Position numbers and translations under genes: made by a program. The notes beneath the pieces are model-generated. The model did no database searches. It saw nothing but the letters and a program-made list of their open reading frames with translations, and had not been told where the DNA came from. Positions 13,784-59,025 of a DNA stretch of 64,000 nt are shown one piece after another (positions within the stretch are counted from its first letter, which is position 1; every line of letters starts with the position of its first letter). The stretch covers positions 25,055 to 89,054 of the forward strand of contig JAZUCF010000024.1 of NCBI GenBank assembly GCA_045638945.1, in the 5' to 3' direction. Source of the stretch: Clostridia bacterium. Its GTDB lineage: Bacteria > Bacillota > Clostridia > UMGS1883.

Positions 13784-13816
13784 AAGGCTGAGTGATTTGT
13801 TTCGCTCAGCCTTTTA
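13784..13816 (+). terminator. Rho-independent terminator (GGCTGAG-N12-CTCAGCC + TTTT)
   Basis: Hairpin followed by a T-run after the deacetylase gene. Confidence 0.55.
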
Positions 13817-13910
13817 AAATTTGATGCGTTGAATATTGAAATGTCCGGCAAAGCTTGATATAATAAAAGTGCGGATTACCGCACTAAGATTATAAAGGAG
13901 GCGAAAGCAT

Positions 13911-16784
13911 ATGAAAAAACTTATAAGCTTGATTTTGGTATTGTGTATGGTGATGAGCTTTGAAAGCTTTGCCCTTGCCGATGAAACTGAAAAGACACAG
14001 GCATCGGCATTTACAACCGTTAAGATTCCGTTCCCCGACAGTATTGAAGACCGCAACTCGTGGATTACACATGCAAGGTATGTAGACAGCGGAGAAATCA
14101 TTCCGCTATCACTTGTATATGAGGGGAATGTGTACGCAACAGTCCCCGTGGAGAATAAGGACCGCGGAATTGAGGCTTTCGTTACCGAAGCAGTGGAATT
14201 TACCGATGTTGATGATTCGGATTTTGATTTTCATGACGTTAAAATGTTGTCACGTGTCGGTGTTGTTCGTGGAAATGACAAGGGCGAGGCAAATATTCAT
14301 GATAACGTAACCCGTGCCGAAGCGGTTGCTATGGTAATGCGTTTCATGGGGCTTGAAGGTCTGGCATGGGAATATACAGATGAAATTTCAGGTAGATATA
14401 CTCAAACCGTTACCTTTGAGGATGTTTCCAAAAAAGACTGGTTTTATTATGTGGTGAATTATGCCCGAGCCTGCGGAATTATTGAGGGCGACAGTCCGAC
14501 AGTCTTTTCTCCTTACAGAAATGTAACGAGGGAAGAAATTACGGCTATGGTTGCAAGAGCCTTGCAGTATGCAAATCTAAGGTGCTTTGTTCGTCAAAAC
14601 GAAAACTTTGCCGACAAAGAAAATATATCCGATTGGGCGAAAGAAGCGTACGATTATCTCGGATATAACTGCATAGTGGACTATCCGCAGAATACGGAAA
14701 ATATTGACTGGGATAACCCCGAACAGTTTCTATATCCGCAGAAAGCGGCTACAAGAGCAAACGTTGCATATATCTTAAATAATGTTCAGGACGAGTGCCA
14801 GATGTATGCATCGGAGCTTGCAAAGATGTTCGGCTTTGACAAAGAAATGCCCAAAATTGATGGCTCAACCTCAACATATCCTTTTACGCAGGTGGTTTAC
14901 AATACGCTTTTCCGTAACGGGCAGACACACCCCGATTATCCGCAAAAACATTCAAAGAGCCATGCTTCATATCAGCGGCTGATAAACGGAGAGGTTGATA
15001 TGCTTTTTGCCTCGGTTTATCCTGCGAGTGATATTCTGAAAATGGCAGAAGAAAAAGGCGTGGAGCTGGAGCTTATCCCAATTGCGTATGATGCGATGAT
15101 ATTCTTTACCAATAAGGATAATCCGATAACGGGGCTTACTAAGGAGCAGATAACTGATATCTATGTGAATGATGCCTATGATAACTGGTCGGAGGTAGGG
15201 GGAAGCGATGCACTTCTTTATCCTTATTGCAGAAATAACGACAGCGGCAGTCATGCACAGATGGAAAAGCATTTCCTTAAAGGAAATGAGATACATAAGG
15301 AAGTACAGAGAGAAACCTCCAGAACAATGTCGGATATTTTAACCGATGTTATAGCGGCAAAAACTGACAGTCCGTTAGGCTATGGACTTGGCTACAGCAT
15401 TTATTATTACTATCATAACGTAGATGCGGTGCTCGACACAAAGCGGCATCTAAAGCTTCTCGCAATCGATGGTGTGATGCCTACTGATGATACTATTGCA
15501 GACGACTCATATCCGCTTTCCAATAACACCTATGTAGTACTCCGAAAAGATACTCCTGCAGACGCACCTGCAAGGAAAATGGCAGAATTTATGCTCACAG
15601 AGGCAGGTCAGCAGTGCGTTGAAGGTGCAGGATTCGGACGACTTAAAAAGACTGTGAAAATTTCAGACGATATGCTCTTTGCGGATAAGATAAACGTACA
15701 GATGCCACAGGATAAAAACTACATGTTTTCCCCATTGTCGATTAAAATGGCTTTATCCCTTGCGGCAAACGGGGCATCGGGCGAAACACAGCAGCAGATA
15801 TTAAATGCGTTGGGAGTTACAAATCTTGATGAATTTAATACACTTTCAAAGGATTTGATAGAAAGATATTCCAAGGCGGATATTTTAAGCCTTAATATTG
15901 CAAATTCAATCTGGATAAACAAGGATAAAACCTCTCAGCAATTCAGCAATGATTTTAAGGGCATTGCTAAGGAGTTTTATAAGGCTGATGCAAATACAGT
16001 CGCCGATGCGTTGGCAGTAAGCGAAATCAATTCGTGGGTAAATGACAAAACGAATGGCAAAATCCCGACTATAATAGATAGCACAGACGATTTTTGGGCA
16101 ATGCTTATTAATGCCATTTACTTTAAAGGTGCATGGCTTGATGAGTTTAATGTAAATGCAACCAAGCCCGACGTATTTAATAATGCAGACGGAACAAAGA
16201 TTACAACCGATTTTATGAATACTACGGACTGGATACCCTATGCCGAAACAAAGTCGGTGCAGATGATAGAGCTTCCTTATCAAAACCGTGTGGAAAAATT
16301 CTCGGACAGCGGAGAATATCTTGATACAGAGGTTTATAAAGACCTTGATGTAAGTATGTATCTTATTATGGCAGATGGCGGCATTAATGCCCAGCAGGAA
16401 TTAACTGCTGCAATAAACGATGATGCTTTTAAGAGCACATACATCAAGCTGGCTATGCCTAAATTCAAGATTGAGTATTCTGCACAGATGAATGACATGC
16501 TTATGAATATGGGCATAACCACAGCATTTGATGAGGGAGAGGCAGACTTTACCAAGATGTTTTATAACGGAAATATGTTTTTTACCGATATGCTTCACAA
16601 AACCTTTATAAGTGTGGACGAAAAGGGAACCGAAGCAGCTGCAGTTACTTCAATCGGCATGGGAGGCTCATCACTTCCGCCCGAGCCTGTCGAGCTTAGG
16701 TTCAATAAACCGTTCTATTTTGCAATCCGTGACAACACAAGCGGCGAAACACTCTTTATGGGACGCTATGCCTTTGCAAATTAA
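13911..16784 (+). CDS. Secreted multidomain protein: signal peptide + 3 SLH domains + PstS-like periplasmic-binding domain + C-terminal serpin
   Basis: N-terminal hydrophobic leader. Three SLH-like repeats (FHDVKMLSRVGVVRG.., FEDVSKKDWFYYVVNYARACGII.., FADKENISDWAKEAYDYLG..). PBP-like-2 signature (GSTSTYP..IAYDAMIFFTNKDNPITGLTKEQITDIY..NDSGSHAQME). Serpin domain from MFSPLSIKMALSLAANGASGETQQQILNALG to the hinge/RCL EKGTEAAAVTSIGMGGSSLPPEP and FNKPFYFAIRD. Single uninterrupted reading frame. Confidence 0.7.
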   Translation: MKKLISLILVLCMVMSFESFALADETEKTQASAFTTVKIPFPDSIEDRNSWITHARYVDSGEIIPLSLVYEGNVYATVPVENKDRGIEAFVTEAVEFTDVDDSDFDFHDVKMLSRVGVVRGNDKGEANIHDNVTRAEAVAMVMRFMGLEGLAWEYTDEISGRYTQTVTFEDVSKKDWFYYVVNYARACGIIEGDSPTVFSPYRNVTREEITAMVARALQYANLRCFVRQNENFADKENISDWAKEAYDYLGYNCIVDYPQNTENIDWDNPEQFLYPQKAATRANVAYILNNVQDECQMYASELAKMFGFDKEMPKIDGSTSTYPFTQVVYNTLFRNGQTHPDYPQKHSKSHASYQRLINGEVDMLFASVYPASDILKMAEEKGVELELIPIAYDAMIFFTNKDNPITGLTKEQITDIYVNDAYDNWSEVGGSDALLYPYCRNNDSGSHAQMEKHFLKGNEIHKEVQRETSRTMSDILTDVIAAKTDSPLGYGLGYSIYYYYHNVDAVLDTKRHLKLLAIDGVMPTDDTIADDSYPLSNNTYVVLRKDTPADAPARKMAEFMLTEAGQQCVEGAGFGRLKKTVKISDDMLFADKINVQMPQDKNYMFSPLSIKMALSLAANGASGETQQQILNALGVTNLDEFNTLSKDLIERYSKADILSLNIANSIWINKDKTSQQFSNDFKGIAKEFYKADANTVADALAVSEINSWVNDKTNGKIPTIIDSTDDFWAMLINAIYFKGAWLDEFNVNATKPDVFNNADGTKITTDFMNTTDWIPYAETKSVQMIELPYQNRVEKFSDSGEYLDTEVYKDLDVSMYLIMADGGINAQQELTAAINDDAFKSTYIKLAMPKFKIEYSAQMNDMLMNMGITTAFDEGEADFTKMFYNGNMFFTDMLHKTFISVDEKGTEAAAVTSIGMGGSSLPPEPVELRFNKPFYFAIRDNTSGETLFMGRYAFAN

Positions 16785-16826
16785 TACGACTGAATATAGA
16801 AACATTATCTGAAAAATCAATGTATT

Positions 16827-16865
16827 ATTTCCTGCTCCTTTTCGGGGCAGGAAATATTTTTTTTG
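16827..16865 (+). terminator. Rho-independent terminator
   Basis: ATTTCCTGC-N12-GCAGGAAAT followed by a 9-nt T-run. Confidence 0.6.
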
Positions 16866-16873
16866 CAAAACTG

Positions 16874-16903
16874 TTGACAATCGCTTCTACACGGTGTATA
16901 ATA
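16874..16903 (+). promoter_or_regulatory. SigA-type promoter (TTGACA-18-TATAAT) with an embedded TACA-cgg-TGTA dyad (candidate BlaI/CopY-type operator)
   Basis: Consensus hexamers; the palindrome TACACGGTGTA (16888-16898) lies in the spacer overlapping -10, as in autoregulated blaI/mecI/copY promoters. Confidence 0.5.
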
Positions 16904-16937
16904 AAAACAAGATGTAGAAGCGAAGGAGGAAACTACT

Positions 16938-17306
16938 ATGAAAATATCAGAAACAGAAATGGAAATTATGAGGATAATCTGGGATAAGGGCGATAAGGTA
17001 ACTACAAGTGAGCTTGCCGAGAAAATGCCCGATAAGAAGCTTACGACTATTTCCACCCTTGCAGGAAGGCTTATTGATAAGGGCTGCCTTAAATCTGAAA
17101 AGATTGGTCGCAGTCATGTTCACGAATATGAGGCGATTATTTCCGAACAGGAATATCAGGCAATGCAAACAAAGGAATTTGTAAGGTCAATTCATCGTGG
17201 TAGTGCAAAAAGCCTTATTTCAGCACTTTTCCGTGATGAAGAATTTACCAAGGAGGATATTGATGAGCTTAGAAGGTTCATAGAAAAGCAGGGTGATGAA
17301 TTATGA
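16938..17306 (+). CDS. BlaI/MecI/CopY family transcriptional repressor
   Basis: 122 aa; winged-helix N-terminus MKISETEMEIMRIIWDKGDKVTTSEL typical of the penicillinase-repressor family. Confidence 0.8.
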   Translation: MKISETEMEIMRIIWDKGDKVTTSELAEKMPDKKLTTISTLAGRLIDKGCLKSEKIGRSHVHEYEAIISEQEYQAMQTKEFVRSIHRGSAKSLISALFRDEEFTKEDIDELRRFIEKQGDEL

Positions 17307-19717
17307 TGGAATCGGTAATTATATCAACCGTTGCAGGCTCTGTCGTTTGCAGTGCATTGCTGATATTTAAAAACAAAATATTATCGTTTTTTGGGGGTAA
17401 AGCACTATACTACATAAGCTTACTTGCAATGCTTATCTTTATTCTTCCCATAAATATCGGTGAATTATCACTTCCCAAAGCACCCATACATCAGGAAGTT
17501 AATGTAACAGAAGTAAATACAGAAGCTCCTGTTAAAAATACAGATAATGCTTTGGTGCAAACAACACAGAGGGCTCCGCAGGAGCCGCAGCATAAGGAAC
17601 TGCCAAAGCCGTCAAATATTGTAAGAAGGTCTAACCCCATTACTGTGCAGGAGATTTTAATATCGGTATGGCTTTTAGGTTTTGTTGCTTCAATATGCAG
17701 ATATTTTATATCATATTTCAGATTCAAGAAGAAAATCTGTGCTTTTGATACACACGAAAATATAAACGGTATAAAGGTAATTAAAAGCCCATTGATAACC
17801 TCTCCCATGATTTTCGGATTTTTCAGACCAACGCTTGCAATTCCCGAAATTGAAATGAACGAGGGCGATTACAACCTTGCAATTAAGCATGAAATGGTGC
17901 ATTATAAGCATCATGATTCATGGATTAAGCTTTTTGCAGTAATCGTTAATTCGATTCACTGGTTTAACCCCATTACATATTTTATGGTGAATTTAATAGG
18001 CGAGGCGTGCGAATATGCCTGTGATGAGCAAGTAACAAAGGAAATGGATTTGACAGACAAGAAGCAGTACAGCACTATGATACTCTCTATGGTATGCCAG
18101 TCTTCACCTGCTCTGTCAAGCAATATGGTTAAAAACAAAAAACAGCTTAAACGGAGGTTTGAGATGATTATGAAAAAGAAAAGCTTCAGCGTTTTTAGAA
18201 CAGCATTATGCACAGTGCTGATACTTACATTAACCTGTGGAAGTATCGTATTGGCAAATAAGGTTGCACCTTTAATTTCTTCCGCCTTGAAGGATGATTA
18301 TGTTTATATAACAACATGGGGAGATAACGGTTACGGTAAAGGCTACAATGAATTCGTCCCCGTAGAGAAGAACGGAGAATACTATCTGCCGCTGAGGGAG
18401 TTTCTGAATAAATCAGATGTTGAAAACGATAAAATCAAATATGACAATGGTGTAATCACGATTGACATCTGGACAAATGAAATGACTGTGGTTTCTGTAG
18501 CTGTTAGGCCAAGCGGCAGCGATCCCACTTTACATGAAAAAGAGAAAAGCAAGACACTCCCTGCCGAATATTCATGGTCAACAAGCTGCAAAATCGGCAG
18601 TAAAGAAGTAGAAATTGCAGGAGAAAAATACACATTATCCAATGCTCCTTATCTTGAGAACGGAATTACATATGTTCCCTACGAGTATCTGAAAAAATTA
18701 AAGCTGTACGAAAATAAGTACACAAGTGCAAATATAGCAAAGCACAGAGGAAGAACAACCTCAAAATTTGATTCAATGATGCTGTTCGGCTTTGACAGTA
18801 CAAACGCACAGTACTATACCGACTATATTCAAATGGAAAATTTGCTTGGCAGAGAGCCGTTTAATTCAGTTTCAAGCATGACATATAATGCCAACGCAAA
18901 AATATCAAAAACAGGCTACCGCACCGAATTTGAAGCTTCATATGATTATTTTGAACTGAATGATGTCGAAAAAGAAGGGCATGTGAAAATAAAGCTGAAC
19001 AAGGTAACCCGTATTTATAGCAAAGGCAGTGACATAGAGGGCTTGTTTACTGTAGTAATTGACGGCAAAACTGTTTACGATAACAAAAAAGGCAATATTA
19101 TACAGCTTCCCATTCCGGCAGGTGACGGAGTGCTGGATTTTTCAAATACCAAGGTCAAAATCGGTGACTTGAATATTGATATGTTCTTTACCGGCTTCAA
19201 TACTGTATCTGACGAATATGATGAAAGAGCAAGGGAAGTAGGCAAAATGAGTGAGCTTCCCGATACTGTCAAAAAATTTATCGTTCCGTCTGCCGTTAAG
19301 CTAAACGGCAAACAGGTTAGCCGTGGTAACAAGACACAAAGCAATTTCTGGTATAACAAGGAAAAGAAGCTTATTGATGTAAACATACAGTTTGACAACT
19401 ACAATGGCGGTAACGGTGCAGACATGGAATCTTACAGAATACACACCGAAGTAAATTCAAAAATGACGGTTATTGATGAAAATACCATCTCAGCAGAATT
19501 GTATTTTACACAGGGGAATAACAATCGTATTGACTCTTTTGATGCAATTGTTATGTTTTTACCCGACGGAGGGTTTGATCTGAAATCCACCGACGGCAAG
19601 TATATTATTATAGGAACGGCAAAGGAATTTGTTCCGCATTGGGAATGGTCGGAGGAAGAAAAGAACGCTCCTGTTCCATCGGTGTTCATGATTAAAGAGC
19701 AAAACGAAGCAGAATAA
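17303..19717 (+). CDS. BlaR1-like M56 family membrane metalloprotease/signal transducer with a large non-PBP extracellular domain
   Basis: TM segments plus HEMVHYKHHD (HExxH of peptidase M56). ~500-aa C-terminal region with copper-amine-oxidase-N-like repeats (YYLPLREFL.., ITYVPYEYLKKL) instead of a penicillin-binding sensor. Overlaps the blaI stop (ATGA). Confidence 0.7.
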   Translation: MMESVIISTVAGSVVCSALLIFKNKILSFFGGKALYYISLLAMLIFILPINIGELSLPKAPIHQEVNVTEVNTEAPVKNTDNALVQTTQRAPQEPQHKELPKPSNIVRRSNPITVQEILISVWLLGFVASICRYFISYFRFKKKICAFDTHENINGIKVIKSPLITSPMIFGFFRPTLAIPEIEMNEGDYNLAIKHEMVHYKHHDSWIKLFAVIVNSIHWFNPITYFMVNLIGEACEYACDEQVTKEMDLTDKKQYSTMILSMVCQSSPALSSNMVKNKKQLKRRFEMIMKKKSFSVFRTALCTVLILTLTCGSIVLANKVAPLISSALKDDYVYITTWGDNGYGKGYNEFVPVEKNGEYYLPLREFLNKSDVENDKIKYDNGVITIDIWTNEMTVVSVAVRPSGSDPTLHEKEKSKTLPAEYSWSTSCKIGSKEVEIAGEKYTLSNAPYLENGITYVPYEYLKKLKLYENKYTSANIAKHRGRTTSKFDSMMLFGFDSTNAQYYTDYIQMENLLGREPFNSVSSMTYNANAKISKTGYRTEFEASYDYFELNDVEKEGHVKIKLNKVTRIYSKGSDIEGLFTVVIDGKTVYDNKKGNIIQLPIPAGDGVLDFSNTKVKIGDLNIDMFFTGFNTVSDEYDERAREVGKMSELPDTVKKFIVPSAVKLNGKQVSRGNKTQSNFWYNKEKKLIDVNIQFDNYNGGNGADMESYRIHTEVNSKMTVIDENTISAELYFTQGNNNRIDSFDAIVMFLPDGGFDLKSTDGKYIIIGTAKEFVPHWEWSEEEKNAPVPSVFMIKEQNEAE

Positions 19718-19771
19718 ATTTATTGAAAAACCGTAACTCAAACAAAACACTTTTGTAAAATAATGCAATAA

Positions 19772-19796
19772 AAAAGAAGGCTATGCCTTCTTTTTT
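19772..19796. terminator. Rho-independent terminator (GAAGGC-tat-GCCTTC + T6)
   Basis: Hairpin with A-run upstream and T-run downstream, between convergent genes. Confidence 0.6.
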
Positions 19797-19802
19797 ACAG
19801 TA

Positions 19803-29958: not shown

Positions 29959-30086
29959 TTAGGAAGCGAAAAACGTGGTTCGGATAATACTTCAATGACT
30001 AATGTTACAAATTTGTTACGAATGATGAATCGAAACAGGAATTACGGCGTTTTGTGTCGAATATTGTTTCGAAAAGGGGTGAAACC

Positions 30087-31817
30087 GTGAAAAAGACAGC
30101 ATTTATAATATTTTTTGTTATGATTATGATGTTTGCCGCTTTCAGCGTCAATGCGGCAAAGATTTATTATAATGATGAGTACCATAATTACTATGCAGGT
30201 GATATACATTTAGCGGTAAACGGTAAGAGGGTAGAAAATCTCCCCATGCAGCCCGTTGTTATTAATGACTATACGATGGTTCCTGTCCGTGAGGTTTTCG
30301 AGGCGTTAGGCTGCGAAGTTATCTGGCATGACGATACCTGCCGAGTGGAAATTAAAAATAACGGCACTTCCGTATTTGTAAAAATCGGTGACAGAAACAC
30401 TGTGATAAATGATGAAATTGTACCTATTTCAGAGCCTCAACCCCTCCCGATGCTTATAGGAAACAGTCCTGAGCTTCTTAAATCCATGGTGCCTATCCGC
30501 TTTGTTGCGGAAAAATTGGGATATGATGTGTCGTGGGAAGATTCTTCGCGTACAGTCTTTGTTTCATCTCCAAATTCCCCCGATGATGAGCTTATAATTG
30601 GAGGAAGCGACGGGGAAAATAATCAGAAACCCGACGATGAAGCAGTAATGCCCGAAAAACAGGGCGAGTTTGGCACAATCAGCGTAGAGAGCGATGCTAC
30701 CTTTGATTATATCTACATTGCAACACGCTACGGCATTTCACCCACCGTTACACGCTACACTAATCCCGAGCGGATAGTTTTTGACTTTGAAAATGCCGCT
30801 TTCCCCCAAATGGGAGGAACAATAGAGGCAGACGGAAACTGCGTTGACTCCGTACGCTATGCAAACAGGGAGGGTTTTGCAAGGGTAGTTCTTGATGTGT
30901 CCTGCAAAACACAGGCGGTGATACTTTCCCACGAAAAGGGTATTCTTATAAGGGTACAAAAATCCGACAATACTCAGCTTATATACGATGCTTTCAAGCA
31001 GCAGGTTTATTTCGATAAAACATATGTCGGTACCGGGAAAAAGGTTGATAACGGCTACAGTGTGACCTTCACCAGCCTTAAGCTTCAGAATCAGAAAATA
31101 AAAATTGACGACGGAATAATCTATGAGATTATAATTACAAATTCTCCGCTCGGCTGTAACATTACAGTTGACGGAAGCAATAAGCTTTATTACACAGCGG
31201 AAAAAGGTTTTCATAAAACGGACAAGCCTGTGGAGGACAGTAAACCTACTATCGATAAGGACGGAAAGAAGGTTGTTGTAATCGATGCAGGTCACGGAGG
31301 AACAGACCCCGGTGCAGTAGGTTATGACAAAAACGGCAAGGCAGTGGCGTATGAAAGTCATATTAACCTTGCGATTGCACTTATGGTGGGAGAAAAGCTT
31401 GAGGCAAATGGGATAAACGTAATTTACACAAGAAGTAAGGACACCTATATTTCACTGGCAGAAAGGTCAGAGCTTGCAAATACGAGCGAGTGCGCCTTTT
31501 TTGTAAGCATTCATTGTAATTCCATAGAAAACGGCGAGATAAACGGAACGCAGGTGTATTATCACCCTGCTTCCGAAACGGGCACGGCTTTGGCGGAGAG
31601 TATATACGATAATATTGTTGATATGACAAATCTTGCTCCGAAAAAAACGCAGAACGGCTCGCATCTTTACGTTATCCGCACAACCACGAGCCCTGCGGTG
31701 TTGGTGGAAACTGCCTTTATCAGTAATGAAAGCGACCGTAAGTTCCTTACGAGCAAGGACGGACAGGCAAAGCTCGCCGAAGCGATAACAAAGGGTATAC
31801 TTGAAACGATAAATTAA
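30087..31817 (+). CDS. N-acetylmuramoyl-L-alanine amidase (Amidase_3) with N-terminal copper-amine-oxidase-N-like domains
   Basis: VVIDAGHGGTDPGA Zn-site motif and SIHCNS; two cuAO-N repeats (MVPVREVFEALGCEVIWHDD.., MVPIRFVAEKLGYDVSWEDS..); GTG at 30087 follows AAAGGGG. Confidence 0.8.
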   Translation: MKKTAFIIFFVMIMMFAAFSVNAAKIYYNDEYHNYYAGDIHLAVNGKRVENLPMQPVVINDYTMVPVREVFEALGCEVIWHDDTCRVEIKNNGTSVFVKIGDRNTVINDEIVPISEPQPLPMLIGNSPELLKSMVPIRFVAEKLGYDVSWEDSSRTVFVSSPNSPDDELIIGGSDGENNQKPDDEAVMPEKQGEFGTISVESDATFDYIYIATRYGISPTVTRYTNPERIVFDFENAAFPQMGGTIEADGNCVDSVRYANREGFARVVLDVSCKTQAVILSHEKGILIRVQKSDNTQLIYDAFKQQVYFDKTYVGTGKKVDNGYSVTFTSLKLQNQKIKIDDGIIYEIIITNSPLGCNITVDGSNKLYYTAEKGFHKTDKPVEDSKPTIDKDGKKVVVIDAGHGGTDPGAVGYDKNGKAVAYESHINLAIALMVGEKLEANGINVIYTRSKDTYISLAERSELANTSECAFFVSIHCNSIENGEINGTQVYYHPASETGTALAESIYDNIVDMTNLAPKKTQNGSHLYVIRTTTSPAVLVETAFISNESDRKFLTSKDGQAKLAEAITKGILETIN

Positions 31818-32730: not shown

Positions 32731-32841
32731 AAAAAAAGCCGCCTTTGTTTGTTTTGTTATATTTTTTGTTGTTTCTGTTATACATTATAGCAGGAAAATA
32801 TGGTATAGTCAATATGAAATATGATATCGGAGGTGGGAAGA

Positions 32842-33846
32842 ATGAAATTTGCGGTCGGGTATCAACTGTGTCAGGACAAGAGTTTTCTTGACAATATCAT
32901 ACAAAGAAAGGAATCTGTTTCCGAGGTTTATTTTTCATGGGGGGATTTTCCCAACGGAAGAAATAATCAGCTCAGAAATTCCTCTATGACACCATGGGAG
33001 GCTCAGGCTAAGCAGATTTCAGACCTTGAGGGGCTTACCAAGGAAGGAATATCACTCAATCTTCTTCTCAATGCCACCTGCTACGGAAAGGACAGCCAGT
33101 CCCGTGCTTTTTTTGAAAAGGTAGGGGAGTGCGTCGATTTCATACAGAATAAATACATATTAAATTCAGTAACCACCACATCACCTTTGATTGCTAAATT
33201 TATCAAGGAGAATTTCAAAGGCGTTGACGTGCGTGCCTCCGTCAACATGTGTATAGGAACAATTGAAGGGATGGAGTATATAGCTCACCTCTTTGACAGT
33301 TTTTATTTAAAAAGGGAGCTGAATCGCAATTTTGAAGCAATCCGCAAGCTTAAGAAATGGTGCGATAATCACGGCAAAGTACTTTATGCACTGGCTAACA
33401 GCGGATGCCTTAATAACTGCTCGGCACATACCTTTCACGATAACCTTGTATCACATGAAAGTGAAATTTCACAAATGGATAACGGATATTCTTTTAAGGG
33501 AATTTGCCACTCTTTTCTTTCCAAGGAAGAAAATATTAAGAAAATAGTAGATTACACAGGGTTTATACGTCCCGAAGATATTTATTTGTATGAGGAGTTA
33601 TTTCCTGCAATGAAGCTTGCCACAAGGGTTAATCAAGACCCAGTAAAAATCCTTCGGGCATACATAGACGATAAAAAATTTATCGGAAGCACCCTGTCCC
33701 TCTTAGAACCAAATCACACGGGAACAATAGCCCCGTATTTGCTTGAAAACAGCTTAATTAAGGCTGAAGTAACAGAAAATAATTTAAAGTATAACATAGA
33801 AAACGCATTGATAAAACTAAAGGAGGATGTATATGTTAACGAGTGA
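32842..33846 (+). CDS. Hypothetical protein, possibly a divergent peptidase-U32-family (TIM-barrel Fe-S) protein
   Basis: Weak motif parallels with the U32 protein at 26607 (EVYFSWGDFPNGRNN vs AVYIGGECFSLRTAADN; ALANSGCLNNCSAH vs GAMCVSYSGRC); GGAGGTGGG RBS; divergent from the AraC gene. Confidence 0.3.
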   Translation: MKFAVGYQLCQDKSFLDNIIQRKESVSEVYFSWGDFPNGRNNQLRNSSMTPWEAQAKQISDLEGLTKEGISLNLLLNATCYGKDSQSRAFFEKVGECVDFIQNKYILNSVTTTSPLIAKFIKENFKGVDVRASVNMCIGTIEGMEYIAHLFDSFYLKRELNRNFEAIRKLKKWCDNHGKVLYALANSGCLNNCSAHTFHDNLVSHESEISQMDNGYSFKGICHSFLSKEENIKKIVDYTGFIRPEDIYLYEELFPAMKLATRVNQDPVKILRAYIDDKKFIGSTLSLLEPNHTGTIAPYLLENSLIKAEVTENNLKYNIENALIKLKEDVYVNE

Positions 33847-34912
33847 GATGATAAAAAGAGCCGCGCTTGAAGCAGGTGCAGATGCGTGCGGTATCGGTCC
33901 TATGTCACGCTTTGAAGGTGCGCCCAAGGAAATGGACCCCAGGTATCTTTTCCCCAATGCAAAGAGTGTAATAGGCTTTGTATTCAGAATTCCAAGAGGC
34001 GTGCAGAGAGGTATTGAGGAGGGAACGCAGTTCTACCAGTACCCCTCTATGGCATATGGCGGAATCAACGAAATTTTCGCTCCCGCAGTACTCCATCATG
34101 TAGGAAGAGTCATTGAGGATGAAGGCTATGAAGCTGTTATTTACAGAAATACGGGTGCGCGAGGTGTTGTTTCAGATATGGACGGAAGCCCCGGAAACAG
34201 CCTTTCTCCCGAGGAACAGATTGAAGTTAGCAAGCACGCAAAGGGAAAGACAGCTCACCACAGAAGCGTGCAGTTTACTCGCGAAGTATCGGAGGGTAAG
34301 GTTCCCCCGGATTTGCAGTTCCAGTTCAGAATTGCGGCGGTTGCCTGCGGCCTTGGTGAAATAGGATGGAGTAAGATGCTTCTCACACCCGATTTTGGTC
34401 CTCTCCAGCGTGTGGCATTCATTTTTACCGATGCAGAGCTTGAATATGACGAAATGTACAGCGGAGAACCGCTTTGCAGAAAGTGCGGTGCCTGCGTAAG
34501 GGAATGTCCGGGAGGATGTATTCCGCCTCTTAATTCAGACAAAAAGGTAACTGTTAATCTCGCAGGAAAAATTCTTGAATGGGGCGACATTGATATGTGG
34601 CGTTGCTATGCATTTTATACACATGGCGGCAGATATTATAATCCTTTTGTTCCCAAAGAGGTTTTCGATAAAAATGAGAATGGTGCTCTTGACCTTCTTG
34701 AAGGTATCACAAATGAGGCAAACGAGAAAGAAATTATGAAGGTATACACCGCTCTTGAAAAATATTTTCCAAGTTGGGTTGGTTACAATATGGCAAAATG
34801 CGGTGGCTGTATACGAGCTTGCGTAAGCGTGCTTGAGAAGAAGGGCGGATGTATGGAAGGCAGATTCAAACAGCCCCTCAGAACCAAAAAAGCATGGAAA
34901 ATGGACAGATAA
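33833..34912 (+). CDS. QueG/reductive-dehalogenase superfamily Fe-S protein, paralog 1
   Basis: Architecture parallels epoxyqueuosine reductase: N-term A.EAGADACGIG, NAKSVIGF.., GLGEIGWSKMLLTPDFGPLQRVAFIFTDAELEYDE, 4Fe-4S motif CRKCGACVRECPGGCI, WRCYAFY, and a distal Cys cluster CGGCIRAC. Confidence 0.55.
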   Translation: MLTSEMIKRAALEAGADACGIGPMSRFEGAPKEMDPRYLFPNAKSVIGFVFRIPRGVQRGIEEGTQFYQYPSMAYGGINEIFAPAVLHHVGRVIEDEGYEAVIYRNTGARGVVSDMDGSPGNSLSPEEQIEVSKHAKGKTAHHRSVQFTREVSEGKVPPDLQFQFRIAAVACGLGEIGWSKMLLTPDFGPLQRVAFIFTDAELEYDEMYSGEPLCRKCGACVRECPGGCIPPLNSDKKVTVNLAGKILEWGDIDMWRCYAFYTHGGRYYNPFVPKEVFDKNENGALDLLEGITNEANEKEIMKVYTALEKYFPSWVGYNMAKCGGCIRACVSVLEKKGGCMEGRFKQPLRTKKAWKMDR

Positions 34913-34925
34913 GGGGGTATAGAAA

Positions 34926-35828
34926 ATGAATGCAGAATTTATAAAACAAAAGGCAAAGGAATACGGTGCTACAGTTTGTGGTATAGGTAATATTGAGCTT
35001 CTGAGAAATGAAGATAAGCATCGTAACCCTTTTTATATTCTTCCAAATGCAAAAAGTATAATCGGCTTTGGAATCAAGGTGCCGAAAGGACTTTATAATG
35101 CAATGGAAAACGAGCGTCAGTATTACAATTATACTAATTTGGGAGTTAAATATATTGATGAAACCTTTGCTGAGATTTTCCTTTTGAAAATGGGTGCTCT
35201 CATTGAAAATGAAGGATATGATGCGTGCCTTCAAAGATATATTCCCGGCTTTAAAATCAAGGGTGATAAAAGTACAAACCCTGAAGTTAACAGGATTTAT
35301 GAACTGGCACTTGCCGAAGCTGTCAAGGAGGGGAAACCCGAACCTGATGTTATTATAGACTATAACAAGGCGGCAGTTATCTGCGGTCTCGGAAGCATCG
35401 GGCTTCATAATAAGGTGATTGTTCCCAAGTATGGTACATATATGCGATTCGTTTTCATAATTACGGATATGGAGCTTGAATTTGATGAGCCTTTTAAGGA
35501 AGAGCTTTGTGACGGATGCGGAGAATGTATAAAGGCATGTCCCGGAAAGGCTGTTTCAAAAGATGGCGTTGATTCATGGCAGTGCAGCGTATACTACAGA
35601 GGTGCTCATAAATCCAATCCTTTTATTACAGACGAATTTCTGAAAGACCATCCCGAGAGAGAGGCAATTTTAAACGGAGAAAAGAGATTTGACAAGGAAA
35701 GCGCCCTTGAAATTTACGACGACCTTAAAATACTCCCCAATACACATTTCGGATACGTTCCCTGTCTTTGCGGAAAGAAATGCGAAACTGTGTGCTACAA
35801 GCATCTTAAGGAGGTGGGCAGAATATGA
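34926..35828 (+). CDS. QueG/reductive-dehalogenase superfamily Fe-S protein, paralog 2
   Basis: AKEYGATVCGIG, NAKSIIGFGIKVP, GLGSIGLHNKVIVPKYGTYMRFVFIITDMELEFDEP, CDGCGECIKACPGKAV, WQCSVYY, CLCGKKCETVCY. Confidence 0.55.
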   Translation: MNAEFIKQKAKEYGATVCGIGNIELLRNEDKHRNPFYILPNAKSIIGFGIKVPKGLYNAMENERQYYNYTNLGVKYIDETFAEIFLLKMGALIENEGYDACLQRYIPGFKIKGDKSTNPEVNRIYELALAEAVKEGKPEPDVIIDYNKAAVICGLGSIGLHNKVIVPKYGTYMRFVFIITDMELEFDEPFKEELCDGCGECIKACPGKAVSKDGVDSWQCSVYYRGAHKSNPFITDEFLKDHPEREAILNGEKRFDKESALEIYDDLKILPNTHFGYVPCLCGKKCETVCYKHLKEVGRI

Positions 35829-49546: not shown

Positions 49547-50461
49547 TCATATTTTTTCGGCAGAAATCATAGCTCCGTTAAGCATATCAATTTTTATAAT
49601 AAAATGCTCTTTAGCTGTCCGGCAAATTATAGCAAAGTACCTACCGTCAAATAACGGAGTGTGCTCAATATAATCATAAGAATTATATAAATCCGGAGCT
49701 TTTTGAGAGCCTAAAGTTGTAATCCCTAAAGAATATAATTCATTTTTCAAATTAAATCTTACTTCTGATTCTTCGCTTTTATAAACAAAATCCACGACCT
49801 CTCCGAATGTCGTTCCGGGGTATTGAATATAAAAGTTTTTGCCATATAAGAATTTGCCTTTTATACCACCATGAGGAGAAGTACTCCAAAGAGCCATATA
49901 ATCGAGCTTGGGGCGAACAGCTTTTTCGGTGTTTATCACATATACTTTTCCATCAAAAAAATACTCCCAATCTAATAATTTTACCGCAATATCCCATACC
50001 AAAGGAATATATGTTACACCACGGAAATTGACAACGGGATATCTCTTTTCACTATTATACTTTTGGTTTTGAATGTATACATCATATTGAACAGTATATG
50101 TTTTATGAAAATCTCCGGAAACATTTTGTTGATTTGAAACAACCTCTGAAAAGTTTTCCTCTCTCTGGTCACTTTTTCCGACATAAAAAAGATAGGGAGA
50201 GTTTTCATTATATCCTTTTTTTCCATAATGCGTTTCCAGTCCTGCGAAGTTGCACATATTATGTGTCAATGGAAAATATAATATATTATTATACTCTAAA
50301 AATGGATATTCTCTATAGGTATTTTCTATAATTTGTCCGTTTACTTTAATTTCATATTTAGGAACAGATACATTTAAAGTTTTCGCACTGACTTTCATTC
50401 CTAGGAACAAGGTAATGAATGTGGAAATTATTATAAAAATTGATTTTTTCACTTTTTTCAC
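49547..50461 (-). CDS. Secreted protein of unknown function
   Basis: Signal peptide MKKVKKSIFIIISTFITLFLGMKVSA; no recognisable domain; low GC. Confidence 0.5.
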   Translation of the reverse strand: MKKVKKSIFIIISTFITLFLGMKVSAKTLNVSVPKYEIKVNGQIIENTYREYPFLEYNNILYFPLTHNMCNFAGLETHYGKKGYNENSPYLFYVGKSDQREENFSEVVSNQQNVSGDFHKTYTVQYDVYIQNQKYNSEKRYPVVNFRGVTYIPLVWDIAVKLLDWEYFFDGKVYVINTEKAVRPKLDYMALWSTSPHGGIKGKFLYGKNFYIQYPGTTFGEVVDFVYKSEESEVRFNLKNELYSLGITTLGSQKAPDLYNSYDYIEHTPLFDGRYFAIICRTAKEHFIIKIDMLNGAMISAEKI

Positions 50462-50467
50462 TCCTGT

Positions 50468-51622
50468 TTAAGGCATTTGCTGAAAATATATAGATATGTT
50501 TTCTTCATGCCAGTTGGTACCACTATTTTTTATTACCTGCCTTGCATTATCTGAATTTGTTCCAAAAGCTCCGCAACGATCCGGTTCATAGTTGTTTCCG
50601 CTTATATGTTCGCCGTCAGCACAATTTTCGGGTAACATTTTAGTGGTTATTCCGTTTGGTGTTGAATATATGTAAGAATTATCAAAGGCAGCATTCAATA
50701 AACGTGTTCCCGTCAAATAATTATGGTTGGAATTGCACAATGTAATTTGCTTGTTGAATGATGTGTTTGTATCGTAAATTCCATAGCTTCCCACATGAAA
50801 ATGATAGTCTACAAATACTCTATCAAAATTTGTTCCATCAACTATTTTAAAGCTCATAAATCCGGGGTTTTCTGACAAATGTTCAACCCTAAAATATAAC
50901 CTATTTGTGTCAATATATATATCATCGAAAGGCTCATACATGTCCTCTTCAAGAACAAATTCAGGGTCTGTTCTTAATTGAAAAACTCTCCACCTAACAA
51001 GCCCATCTCCACCAAGTTCATACGCAACTCCAAAATCCATATAAAAATCTTGTACCCCAGGATAAGAAGCCGATGTATCAATAGTATAAAACATGTAACC
51101 AGCGGTATCATTAGTTTTGTTTTGAATTGTGGGCAAGGTAACAAAAGTAGTTGCTCCGGAATATTCAGACAAAGACATAACCTCCCAGCCTATCCCTTCA
51201 TCACCTGGTCGGTTAATCGCCCTGCTTGAACTGTTTTCACTGCTGATTGCAAGCTTTTTATTACGATTATCTTCAATAATGGGGACTGTTGACATGGATG
51301 CTTTAATATAGTTTTTTACTTGTTCTTTGCTGAATCCATATGTTTCTGCATCCCTTTTAATAGATTTTATAATATCCTTGTAAGCTCCTTTTGCAGACAT
51401 TCCATTATTTTCATATTCCTTTTGAACGAAAGATGACATTTCTATCTCTTCTAAGTCTATTTCATTGTTTTTCAAAAACGTTACAGTTTCAGTTCCCAAC
51501 AGAGTTGTTTTTTCTTTTGCAGAAAAAACAGATAAATCCTTTTCTATACCTTCATCTGCATTTGCGATGCTTATGCTTGATAACATAAAAATCGTTACGA
51601 AAAAAAATAATTTCTTTTTCAT
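50468..51622 (-). CDS. Secreted protein of unknown function
   Basis: Signal peptide MKKKLFFFVTIFMLSSISIANA; 384 aa; no recognisable domain; low GC. Confidence 0.5.
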   Translation of the reverse strand: MKKKLFFFVTIFMLSSISIANADEGIEKDLSVFSAKEKTTLLGTETVTFLKNNEIDLEEIEMSSFVQKEYENNGMSAKGAYKDIIKSIKRDAETYGFSKEQVKNYIKASMSTVPIIEDNRNKKLAISSENSSSRAINRPGDEGIGWEVMSLSEYSGATTFVTLPTIQNKTNDTAGYMFYTIDTSASYPGVQDFYMDFGVAYELGGDGLVRWRVFQLRTDPEFVLEEDMYEPFDDIYIDTNRLYFRVEHLSENPGFMSFKIVDGTNFDRVFVDYHFHVGSYGIYDTNTSFNKQITLCNSNHNYLTGTRLLNAAFDNSYIYSTPNGITTKMLPENCADGEHISGNNYEPDRCGAFGTNSDNARQVIKNSGTNWHEENISIYFQQMP

Positions 51623-57618: not shown

Positions 57619-59025
57619 TTACTTAATTGTTTTAATATAGTTTTCGTAATCGGTTGTATGCTCAACCTTTGCGTTTTTAATTATTGTGTTGATTTCCTCC
57701 TGTGCGGCATTCTGTGCCAGAATACTCATCCAATAATTTTTTGCAGCGGTAAGCTCTTTCTCGCTTAAGGGAAGTCGCATAATTATATGATAACCGTAAT
57801 CAGTTTTAATTGGTGCTTTTGTAAGTTCGTTTTCTTTTAATGCAAACGCCGCCTTTTCAAAAGGCTCCACCATTTCCCCTTTGGTAAAGGTATACCCCTC
57901 CTCGGTAGAACCGGGGTCAATGTTATGCTCTTTCATAAGCGTGTCAAAGCTTTCGCCCTTTTTAATGCGGGAAATAAGCTCCTTCGCAAGTGCTTCATCC
58001 TCTACAAGAATATGCTTTGCAGTGATATAACTTGTACGGAACATATTTTCGTATTCGGAAACGTCATAATCCCTCTTTGCCGCATCCTCCTGAATAGTCT
58101 GAGCTGTTATCATATAAATCAGGAATTTGTTTGCAAAATCCTGAAAATCTTCCTTGCTTATAATCCCTACCTCAATAGCTTTATCGGCATTGTACTGCAT
58201 GGTTAGTTCCTGCTCTATATAACCAAGCAGTTCACCGGAGATTTTTGTAAATTCCTCATCAAATGTCAAGTTAATTTTCTCCGCATGGGCACACAGAGCG
58301 TAAATCTGCATAATGGTATTTTCAATTTCGGAAGTAAGAAGCTGTGCGGCAGGCACAGAATCAATGGTAAGGGTTTGCAGTGTGCCGCCCGCAGTGTAAT
58401 TATCGCAAGTCTCTTTCATGAATTCATCCGTTGTGAAATTATAAAGGAGCATATTGAAAAGACCGGCGTTTACCGCTTGTGAGTCAACTTTAATCAATGC
58501 TTTGTCGGAAAAACCTTTTAACGTGTCAAGGTCAACCTTATAAAAATCCCCTGTTATATAAATTGTTTTTGTTTCGCTGTCCCAATCAATTTTTCTGCCC
58601 AGAGCCTCGGTAATTGCACGAACGGGAACATAGGTAGTGCCGTCAATAAGGAACGGATTCACAACTTTTCCGTTCACGTCCTTAGGCTCTATTAAAGTGC
58701 CGTTTATTACAATCCTTATAACCTCGGAGCTTTCAAATGCAGTTGATGTCTTTTCTCCGATATAGACAATGCGGCTATGTCCGTCCCATTCTACTTTCTG
58801 TCCCAGTGCCTCAGACACGGCACGTGCGGGAAGATAAGTGGTGCCCTCCAAAAGAAACGGAGGTACGATTTTACCGTTGACGTCTTTAGGGGTAAGCTTT
58901 TCACCGTCAATAACAATCTGAATATCCGCATTGTTATTTTCGGGGATTGCAGTATCTTCAGCAAAAACGGCAGATGTAAAAAACATGGTTAAGCATGTAA
59001 CTAACGCTATCAATTTCTTTATCAT
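57619..59025 (-). CDS. Secreted parvulin-type peptidyl-prolyl isomerase (PrsA-like) with two N-terminal copper-amine-oxidase-N-like domains
   Basis: Signal peptide; repeats TTYLPARAVSEALGQKVEWD and TTYVPVRAITEALGRKIDWD; C-terminal PpiC domain (ITAKHILV..GYHIIMRL). Confidence 0.75.
   Translation of the reverse strand: MIKKLIALVTCLTMFFTSAVFAEDTAIPENNNADIQIVIDGEKLTPKDVNGKIVPPFLLEGTTYLPARAVSEALGQKVEWDGHSRIVYIGEKTSTAFESSEVIRIVINGTLIEPKDVNGKVVNPFLIDGTTYVPVRAITEALGRKIDWDSETKTIYITGDFYKVDLDTLKGFSDKALIKVDSQAVNAGLFNMLLYNFTTDEFMKETCDNYTAGGTLQTLTIDSVPAAQLLTSEIENTIMQIYALCAHAEKINLTFDEEFTKISGELLGYIEQELTMQYNADKAIEVGIISKEDFQDFANKFLIYMITAQTIQEDAAKRDYDVSEYENMFRTSYITAKHILVEDEALAKELISRIKKGESFDTLMKEHNIDPGSTEEGYTFTKGEMVEPFEKAAFALKENELTKAPIKTDYGYHIIMRLPLSEKELTAAKNYWMSILAQNAAQEEINTIIKNAKVEHTTDYENYIKTIK

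Follow-up and report, generated by a model that had tools for sequence, protein, structure and literature searches.

Miropin, a serpin of Tannerella forsythia, is a single-domain lipoprotein of a Gram-negative bacterium with a broad inhibitory spectrum, for which it uses several bonds of a loop different from the one we present below. It is said, in work of Ksiazek et al. from 2015, to be found at the cell surface and to inhibit host proteases. For Clostridium thermocellum, two sources (PMC8201313, PMC4788478) describe PinA and PinB (Kang et al. 2006), serpins borne on dockerins that are proposed to protect the cellulosome. In the gut, the siropins of Eubacterium siraeum, the B. longum serpin and BMG-1 of Flavonifractor plautii inhibit neutrophil and/or pancreatic elastase (PMC5127057, PMC13376542), and such gut bacterial serpins, BMG-1 (2026) among them, are pursued as modulators of host proteases in inflammatory bowel disease. 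Here we present a serpin of a Clostridia bacterium (GTDB lineage UMGS1883), found in a stretch of 64,000 nucleotides that we call the window (NCBI GenBank assembly GCA_045638945.1, contig JAZUCF010000024.1, positions 25,055 to 89,054 of the forward strand). One gene, the fusion gene, encodes a protein of 957 residues (aa) in which the serpin follows S-layer homology (SLH) repeats and a domain like the phosphate-binding protein PstS. With a probability of roughly 0.7, we read this protein as a secreted, wall-tethered suicide-substrate inhibitor of extracellular serine proteases, whose targets would be elastase-like or chymotrypsin-like enzymes of the gut.

A sequence-only reading of the window had proposed a single 957-residue frame with a signal peptide, three SLH repeats, a binding-protein domain of the PBP-like-2 type and a complete serpin, and all of these parts are borne out. 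The open reading frame (ORF) runs from ATG to TAA with exactly the coordinates given in Table 1, and searches with profile hidden Markov models (HMMs) return strong matches for both the serpin and the binding protein. That reading did not list a beta-sandwich, which comes after the signal peptide and before the first SLH repeat; the full order is signal peptide, beta-sandwich, three SLH repeats, PstS-like domain and serpin. The AlphaFold model of the full-length protein (input of 47 homologues; mean predicted local distance difference test, pLDDT, 82; predicted template modelling score, pTM, 0.57) has a signal helix at residues 2-26, the beta-sandwich at 34-91, the SLH helix pairs, a two-lobed alpha/beta domain at 316-572 and the serpin at 590-953. 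Confidence in the model is low over a long stretch only in the linker after the signal peptide, in a loop that joins SLH1 to SLH2, and at the tip of the reactive loop (918-928), where it is lowest. By eye, the sequence shows a signal peptide, MKKLISLILVLCMVMSFESFALA/DE (the slash marks its end), and in the model its region is the helix 2-26, with disorder at 19-30. The beta-sandwich has no Pfam match, and it is kept across the family, in members with and without a serpin alike. For the SLH repeats, Pfam SLH gives 50 bits (E 2.9e-13) in two significant stretches; the third repeat is a call by eye that agrees with a third helix pair in the model (pairs 107-146, 179-220 and 241-295) and with its TRA(N/D) motif. 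In the PDB sequence search, this region matches the Sap SLH structures 6bt4 and 3pyw. The three motifs are TRAE (134-137), TREE (206-209) and TRAN (281-284), and among 56 aligned fusion proteins the first repeat has TRAE in 51, the second has TREE in 49, and the third has TRA(D/N) or TRY(D/E). In the SLH proteins that have been studied, a TRAE-type motif in each repeat is needed for binding to the pyruvylated wall polymer.

The serpin domain is nearly covered by the Pfam profile from end to end. Serpin (PF00079) matches residues 599-953 with 288.9 bits (cut-off 27, E 8.3e-86), over profile positions 18-367 of 370, and 142 serpins in the PDB match at E <= 1e-20. The nearest solved structures by sequence are those of tengpin (2pef, 2pee and 2vh4; E ~3e-49), then miropin (5ncs; E 1e-44) and conserpin, and Foldseek against the PDB recovers the serpin fold at E ~1e-31 with target-normalised template modelling (TM) scores of ~0.8 (tengpin, CBG, antithrombin). 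Three motifs that had been quoted from the sequence are all found between residues 906 and 937: GTEAAAVT at 906-913, SIGMGGS/SLPPEP at 914-926 (the slash marks the predicted scissile bond) and FNKPFYF at 931-937. We number the loop by anchoring it on alpha1-antitrypsin, in which E342 is P17 and M358 is P1, the cleaved chain B in the PDB beginning at S359. The same count makes E904 P17, G906 P15, T907 P14, A909-A911 P12-P10, V912 P9 and M917 P4, and it places P1-P1' at S920-S921, such that P17 to P1 takes 16 residues, as many as in alpha1-antitrypsin. The proposal of a small P1 residue stands by this count, which gives Ser920. From P1' to P5' the protein reads S-L-P-P-E, compared with S-I-P-P-E in alpha1-antitrypsin. 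The hinge agrees with the inhibitory consensus (Glu at P17, Gly at P15, Thr or Ser at P14, small residues at P12-P9), and the Val at P9 is common to this serpin and tengpin. E904, E908, A909-A911 and T913 do not vary among the 47 aligned homologues, and G906 hardly does. Over the 56 aligned fusion proteins the whole reactive loop is near-invariant, with the consensus GTEAAAVTAIGMAGS/ALPPEP, and its column conservation is 0.88 versus 0.75 for the serpin domain. By its hinge, its loop length and its closest relatives, the serpin is apparently inhibitory, and the reading of the protein as a surface-displayed, apparently inhibitory serpin holds as far as sequence and structure prediction reach. 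We also observe that in some deep-branching fusions (P0053, P0054 and P0056-P0058) a Cys takes the place of the Thr at P14 (G-C-E-A-A-A-V-T); a Cys at P14 is unusual among inhibitory serpins.

The PstS-like domain is matched by Pfam PBP_like_2 (PF12849) at residues 315-560 with 80 bits (cut-off 27, E 3.2e-22). Its sequence matches in the PDB are all phosphate-binding proteins, 4n13 first (E 1e-17), then 4q8r and 4gd5, 1twy and 9l8j. An AlphaFold model of the domain by itself has pLDDT 84 and pTM 0.81, and the top 21 Foldseek matches of that model in the PDB are all of the PstS type, with target-normalised TM-scores of 0.57-0.76. This domain is the best-conserved part of the protein (column conservation 0.85), with pairwise identities to the window protein of 68-98%. 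The E. coli PstS sequence that we used for comparison is identical to that of 1IXH in 321/321 positions, and we take the eight phosphate ligands of that structure to be T10, F11, S38, D56, R135, S139, G140 and T141. A pairwise global alignment pairs six of them with the window protein: T10 with T322, F11 with Y323, R135 with R441, S139 with S445, G140 with G446 and T141 with S447. These six candidate anion ligands are invariant in the family, and each is at the N-terminus of a helix or at the end of a strand in the AlphaFold model. Since anion-binding residues at helix N-termini are kept in six of eight positions, the domain probably binds phosphate or a similar oxyanion.

In the mechanism that we propose, the protein would be exported through its Sec signal peptide, and the three SLH repeats with their TRAE-type motifs would hold it non-covalently on the secondary cell-wall polymer, as is known for the family. 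Comparison shows that the parts ahead of the serpin, from the beta-sandwich to the PstS-like domain, make up a conserved surface scaffold, to which the serpin is attached by a linker of only ~9 residues; this scaffold may be rigid and present the serpin at its end. Following the general serpin mechanism, insertion of the loop into sheet A would trap a protease that cuts at or near Ser920-Ser921 as an acyl-enzyme, and the inactivated protease would stay tethered to the wall. The targets would be pancreatic or neutrophil enzymes, elastase-like or chymotrypsin-like, and possibly microbial subtilisins. The benefit may be the shielding of exposed surface proteins, including the binding domain of the scaffold itself. 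The small P1, the Met at P4, the primed side like that of alpha1-antitrypsin, the gut origin and the precedent of other gut serpins all point to elastase-like, chymotrypsin-like or subtilisin targets. Sample names of family members include human MetaHIT, Hadza, chicken, sheep and other ruminants. A loop that is more conserved than the serpin average suggests a conserved target rather than an arms race. No gene for a cognate protease was found in eight distinct fusion loci or in the window, where the peptidases are all housekeeping ones (CtpA S41, S11 carboxypeptidase, Lon, M23, U32), and the absence of a conserved protease neighbour, together with a loop that is near-invariant across members only 51% identical, argues that the conserved target is an exogenous protease of the gut.

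Several points weigh against this reading, in which inhibition, target and scissile bond are all things that we infer from sequence and structure prediction. The AlphaFold model of the serpin is loop-inserted, or latent-like, with P15-P5 as a strand beside s5A, and the best PDB matches of the model are latent or cleaved serpins. Structure prediction tends to give the relaxed state even for genuine inhibitors, and we rejected the latent-like conformation as biology, as it is likely a modelling bias. Tengpin requires its N-terminal segment to stay native, which bears on the stability of the native state within a fusion, and Ser at P1 is unusual for the known elastase inhibitors. Siropins are cut several residues off the predicted P1 (PMC5127057), and the true bond in the fusion protein could likewise differ, for instance being after Met917. 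For the PstS-like domain, NCBIfam TIGR02136, which is the only NCBIfam match of the fusion protein, scores 100.2 bits, under its cut-off of 206.6; with PBP_like_2 above its own cut-off, the domain is a member of the superfamily and not a called PstS, so the PstS assignment is one at the family level only. The ligand positions S38 and D56 fall in an indel-rich stretch, and these two of the eight are not unambiguously alignable; S348/S350 and D374, which the model puts at helix N-termini, are candidate counterparts, and a local profile alignment to E. coli PstS with hhalign covers the C-terminal lobe only and leaves both unplaced. The transporter genes pstCAB are absent within 6-10 kb of all eight distinct loci that we inspected, and no pst transporter genes were found among the scanned ORFs of the window. 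The sub-cut-off score, the two unaligned ligands and the lack of an adjoining pstCAB leave room for a domain that may be a mere structural spacer or may bind a ligand other than phosphate. As for the anchor, the pyruvyl-transferase gene csaB was not found among the scanned ORFs of at least 150 aa in the window, nor in the gene tables.

The alternative that survives best, and that we still find unlikely, is that the main role of the protein is to capture phosphate or another oxyanion at the cell surface for an ABC transporter, the serpin being a bodyguard in cis for this exposed binding protein alone, or else that the PstS-like domain regulates the serpin in response to phosphate or a polyanion. 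It would account for the PstS-like domain being the best-conserved part, with invariant candidate ligands; for the separate joining of a serpin to an SBP_bac_3-SLH protein (L007, P0174); and for a linker of ~9 residues, which implies a fixed geometry. Antithrombin is the model of a serpin regulated by a cofactor. In favour of regulation, one source describes chloropin, a bacterial serpin that is accelerated by a polyanion (PMC10090351). Set against all this are the eight distinct loci, none of which has pstCAB or other transporter genes nearby, the TIGR02136 score, and the composition of the family, in which close relatives have the scaffold working without a serpin, and SLH-serpins without the binding domain are far commoner. 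Since binding domain and serpin each occur without the other, their two functions look separable rather than coupled.

Less probable again is a serpin that does not inhibit, serving for binding, as a chaperone or as a structural head (like ovalbumin, Hsp47 or the hormone carriers), or that is constitutively latent. A model with P15-P5 in sheet A and with latent tengpin and cleaved serpins as its best matches is what such a protein would give, the loop is bland (Ser at P1, Gly or Ala at P2-P3), and its conservation is unlike that of the fast-evolving loops of arms-race serpins. However, the hinge (Gly at P15, Thr at P14, Ala at P12-P10) fits the inhibitory consensus, where non-inhibitory serpins usually have bulky or charged residues; tengpin and miropin, the closest solved relatives, are inhibitors; and the loop has the length of that of alpha1-antitrypsin, in a kind of model for which AlphaFold often yields the relaxed state of true inhibitors. 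We therefore keep to the reading of an inhibitory serpin.

The fusion itself is found many times. A protein identical to the 957-residue product (P0122) is encoded on an independent NCBI contig of 178 kb, and one 98% identical (P0001) is encoded in the metagenome-assembled genome (MAG) GCA_045545055.1. A word-indexed search returns at least 58 clusters (P0001-P0058), with identities of 51-98%, from NCBI, ENA, JGI and Logan; 57 of the 58 carry SLH, PBP_like_2 and Serpin, and the remaining one, P0040, is a truncated product with PBP_like_2 and Serpin only. Single family members recur on up to 14-15 separate contigs. The doubt that the window might hold a mis-join is thereby answered, and a mis-assembly, frameshift or misread stop codon joining adjacent SLH-PstS-like and serpin genes, conceivable at first sight as the same 90%-identity cluster holds 579-residue proteins that end where the serpin starts (P0121, P0123-P0125), is hardly credible given the identical and the 98%-identical copies, the same junction in all those clusters and four data sources, the smooth base composition over the domain junctions, and a serpin-less allele that is followed by an unrelated gene, with no serpin ORF or remnant within 21 kb, which makes the 579-residue proteins a different allele and not the sequence of the window plus a stop.

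Judging by its relatives, the protein is not so much a one-off chimera as a serpin head added to an SLH-PstS-like scaffold that is itself widespread. Many proteins of ~565 aa have only SLH and PBP_like_2 and share 66-78% identity with the N-terminal 61% of the fusion protein; scaffolds by themselves reach 579 aa. Other variants of the scaffold have an N-terminal SBP_bac_3 (P0061, P0068, P0098, P0101) or an unknown domain (P0115), and P0072 has a different C-terminus, on a single contig that may be a read-through. In a neighbour-joining tree of the SLH and PBP part, forms with and without a serpin are thoroughly interleaved; the tree was drawn from the top-120 list, in which distant members are biased to forms with a serpin. 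Among the fusions, serpin and scaffold divergence are correlated (Spearman rho ~0.7), which suggests that most fusions were inherited as one. The exception is P0033, whose scaffold is ~80% identical to those of P0004, P0008 and P0009 with a serpin only ~52% identical. In its loop and C-terminus, P0033 is similar to the two-domain SLH-serpin L002, and the mismatch points to a serpin head that was itself replaced by recombination. The broader proposition, that the scaffold is a general surface-display platform of an uncultured gut Clostridia lineage, with heads (a serpin, amino-acid-type binding domains and others) swapped by recombination between alleles and paralogues, and that in the serpin form the two domains may be coupled, the serpin guarding the phosphate receptor in cis or the PstS-like domain gating the serpin when it binds an anion or polyanion, is one on which we would not wager much.

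Beyond the scaffold, HMMER was run exhaustively against 1.84 billion representatives (50% identity), where the triple fusion has one full-length representative (P0053) and one fragment. Among the best 150 matches, the majority have 550-600 aa and carry their serpin at the C-terminus, and a second stretch of theirs that matches is most simply taken for an SLH repeat; there are also longer X-SLH-serpin proteins, an SBP_bac_3-SLH-serpin (P0174) and a Cu_amine_oxidN1-serpin (P0265). Among the matches listed in a scan of genomes, those closest to the serpin domain, at 43-57% identity, are SLH-serpins from MAGs of gut Clostridia and Oscillospiraceae (L002-L010), and the nearest named ones are labelled Oscillospiraceae or Ca. 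Monoglobus. In two proteins, that of L007 (6939-9113) and P0174, SBP_bac_3 comes first, then SLH, then the serpin; this is an independent fusion, and it implies that binding-protein domains and serpins were combined at least twice. At L010 (Ca. Monoglobus merdigallinarum, DXIJ01000055.1, 7323-10731), a distinct gene for an SLH-PstS-like protein comes directly after the SLH-serpin gene, and the binding domain that it encodes shares 53% identity with the one in the window. Adjacent genes of this kind could be the raw material for a triple fusion, the gene order there being the reverse of the domain order of the fusion. The statement that bacterial serpins are rare, made in the sequence-only reading, does not hold, as we confirmed at least 586 serpin loci among GTDB species genomes. 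Its other remark, that a serpin anchored by SLH and fused to a binding protein was not known, has to be divided: the PstS-like insertion is specific to a lineage and we found no paper on it, and SLH-serpins as such are common in gut MAGs. By their sequences, SLH-anchored serpins are common in gut Clostridia, and the PstS-like insertion defines one sub-lineage. The searches also returned proteins with two or three serpin domains in one chain (P0201, P0257 and P0263; 837-1375 aa), and one sheep duodenum MAG (L017, JAFWFI010000101.1, 4741-10520) has three tandem serpin genes, the first of them with three SLH repeats.

The serpin head is accessory, being present or absent at one locus in close genomes. 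The locus L085 (GCA_017451505.1) is syntenic with the window at ~89-90% nucleotide identity over the pyr operon, the deacetylase, the scaffold gene, CitMHS and DUF1846, and 1.6 kb stands there in place of the variable segment of Table 1. The blastn breakpoint pairs window position 15647 with L085 position 11737, and the first codon of the linker, AAG (K580), stands opposite a TAA in L085, whose scaffold gene ends R-L-K-TAA where the window reads R-L-K-K-T-V. The slot in L085 (11777-13384) is taken by a secreted protein of 535 aa with a faint Cu_amine_oxidN1 match, for which we detected no similarity to the BlaR1-like protein of the window. An unrelated gene for a secreted protein in the serpin-less haplotype suggests that the locus is a hotspot for the swapping of surface-protein genes. 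At L089 and L090 (P0002, 85% identical), the same slot holds the fusion gene, and the blaI-like and blaR1-like genes that follow it in the window are missing. L081 (GCA_045545055.1, JAZQAB010000090.1) has the fusion gene with both blaI and blaR1, plus an insert of 2.7 kb upstream. Window positions 13896-19797 are 97.9% identical to L081, and the flanks (pyr operon, CitMHS/DUF1846) are 89.5-92% identical. A block identity so far above that of the flanks argues for a recent recombinational transfer of the 5.9-kb block of three genes, or for a gene-specific sweep. The left edge of the block coincides with the ribosome-binding site. It seems that homologous recombination carries the whole gene from strain to strain. 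Around more distant fusions, the neighbours are different in every context that we examined.

By its predicted promoter and terminator, the fusion gene is a self-contained unit, and the terminator at its 3' end indicates that it is monocistronic. The inverted repeat that lies ahead of the ribosome-binding site could be a stem in the 5' untranslated region or an operator, that is, a binding site for a regulator. Across the whole window, a tRNA-Leu is the only match in the Rfam and tRNA scans. Of the two genes that follow, the blaI-like one has its own promoter with a perfect inverted repeat overlapping it, which is likely an autoregulatory operator, and the extracellular part of the BlaR1-like protein is not a penicillin-binding domain, and the one signal that it gives, for Cu_amine_oxidN1, is faint. 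As an indel, the pair is independent of the serpin. We considered an operon with blaI-blaR1, for instance a protease-sensing circuit that controls the serpin, and rejected it as a conserved feature: the fusion gene brings a promoter and a strong terminator for itself, the TACA/TGTA repeat is found only in the blaI promoter, the P0002 locus lacks the pair, and the neighbours of distant fusions are unrelated. With separate signals and variable presence, blaI and blaR1 are neighbours, not partners. We also note domains similar to the N-terminal domain of Cu-amine oxidases on three exported proteins of the window, an Amidase_3 autolysin (30054-31817), a PrsA-like PPIase (57619-59025) and the BlaR1-like sensor (17303-19717); this domain seems to be a general cell-envelope module of the organism, alongside SLH. 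Elsewhere in the window, two groups of consecutive ORFs have no Pfam match at E <= 1e-5: 32821-35828 on the forward strand (341, 361 and 300 aa) and 49547-51622 on the reverse strand (304 and 384 aa).

Table 1. Positions in the window of the fusion gene, its parts and the adjoining features.
Feature	Position (nt)	Strand	Basis or remark
Terminator hairpin of the upstream deacetylase gene	13784-13813		precedes the promoter of the fusion gene
Predicted sigma-70-type promoter, TTGAAA-17 nt-TGnTATAAT (TG-extended)	13836-13864	+	consensus scan, 11/12 matches
7-bp inverted repeat AGTGCGG-atta-CCGCACT	13868-13885	+	between -10 box and ribosome-binding site
Ribosome-binding site AAGGAGG of the fusion gene	13895	+	
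Fusion gene, complete coding sequence (ATG to TAA)	13911-16784	+	957 aa; ORF list, Pfam
Sec-type signal peptide, aa 1-23 (MKK, hydrophobic core, ALA/DE)	13911-13979	+	read from the sequence
N-terminal beta-sandwich, aa ~31-95	14001-14195	+	AlphaFold: five strands, pLDDT 88-94
Three SLH repeats, aa 97-295, putative anchor to the secondary cell-wall polymer	14199-14795	+	Pfam, PDB matches, model
PstS-like type-II solute-binding domain, aa 312-579	14844-15647	+	Pfam, PDB, Foldseek
Linker KTVKISDDM, aa 580-588	15648-15674	+	blastn breakpoint, junction comparison
Variable segment: serpin-coding 3' part, blaI-like and blaR1/M56-like genes	15648-19755	+	blastn against L085, L081 and others
Serpin domain, aa 589-957	15675-16781	+	Pfam, PDB, Foldseek
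Hinge and reactive-centre loop, P17 to P6', E904-P926: EKGTEAAAVTSIGMGGS/SLPPEP	16620-16688	+	alpha1-antitrypsin counting
Predicted scissile bond Ser920-Ser921	16668-16673	+	hinge counting
Strong predicted intrinsic terminator (13-bp stem, 6 GC pairs, T8 tail)	16826-16864	+	stem 16826-16856
Promoter of the blaI-like gene, perfect TTGACA-17-TATAAT	16874-16902		
Perfect 10-bp inverted repeat CGCTTCTACA...TGTAGAAGCG, TACA/TGTA cores	16882-16891 / 16913-16922		overlaps the blaI promoter
blaI-like repressor gene	16938-17306		
BlaR1-like M56 sensor gene	17303-19717		804 aa

The gut serpins characterised so far are all free, single-domain proteins, and the wall-anchored class in gut Clostridia is large and unstudied. 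If the fusion protein does inhibit pancreatic or neutrophil proteases at the surface, it would represent a strategy of self-protection by commensals, and a cell-bound anti-protease activity that assays of supernatants would overlook. If serpin and PstS-like domain were coupled, this would be the first serpin with a built-in cofactor domain that senses a ligand. The near-invariant reactive loop is a precise prediction of a conserved target, and the presence or absence of the serpin at a syntenic locus is a natural experiment on its fitness value. The mechanism that we find most likely is a conventional one, and it is the size of the class and the fusion to a binding domain that are noteworthy for specialists in serpins and in the microbiome.

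Compared with known systems, the closest solved serpin by both sequence and fold is tengpin, of Thermoanaerobacter tengcongensis, which also belongs to the Clostridia-class Firmicutes. Their hinges agree in GT(K/E)A(G/A)AVTS and their C-termini in NxPFxFxI, and their loops differ (IGMGGS/SLPPEP in the window, VDITAA/GIPVNF in tengpin). The crystallised chains of tengpin have 373-387 aa, whereas in the window protein ~590 residues, with the anchor and the binding domain, come before the serpin; the N-terminal extension of tengpin is short and is not known to carry another domain. Miropin (PDB 5ncs-5ncw) is the second-closest group of solved bacterial serpins, and its source is host-associated as well. 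PinA and PinB follow the same concept, in that a module fused to a bacterial serpin brings it into an assembly at the cell surface, where its proposed role is to keep exposed surface proteins from being proteolysed. They attach by a type-I dockerin to a cohesin scaffold, whereas the window protein would attach by SLH directly to the wall polymer, and they are described with no solute-binding domain, in a soil or thermophilic cellulolytic niche and with subtilisin-like proteases as the known target. The siropins, the B. longum serpin and BMG-1 resemble the window protein in their gut setting and likely target class; they are described as single-domain proteins of ~44-48 kDa, with no SLH or binding domain reported, and BMG-1 is <30% identical to other serpins and has an unrelated loop (APTDY region). 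The uncharacterised SLH-serpins (such as L002-L010, P0132 and P0138) agree with the window protein in signal peptide, SLH repeats and a serpin at the C-terminus, and their loop, GMAGSA(L/A)PPEP, is almost that of the window protein; they have 550-600 aa and lack the PstS-like domain and the N-terminal beta-sandwich. On the side of the binding domain, the PstS proteins (E. coli 1IXH, C. perfringens 4gd5/4q8r, B. burgdorferi 4n13, Synechocystis Sll0540 9l8j) have the same fold. The N-terminal GSTST and the R-x3-S-G-(S/T) anion-binding motifs are common to PstS and the window domain, and the GSGxG loop of PstS is an invariant HSKSH in the window family. PstS is a free periplasmic protein or a lipoprotein, whereas the window domain is inside a wall-anchored multidomain protein. 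Our literature search found no paper on an SLH-borne serpin or an SLH-PstS protein, only papers on dockerin-serpins; the family is already in public databases under the names 'S-layer homology domain-containing protein' and 'substrate-binding domain-containing protein'. Tethering through SLH and the embedded PstS-like domain are what is undescribed here, and the components and the principle of a tethered serpin are known.

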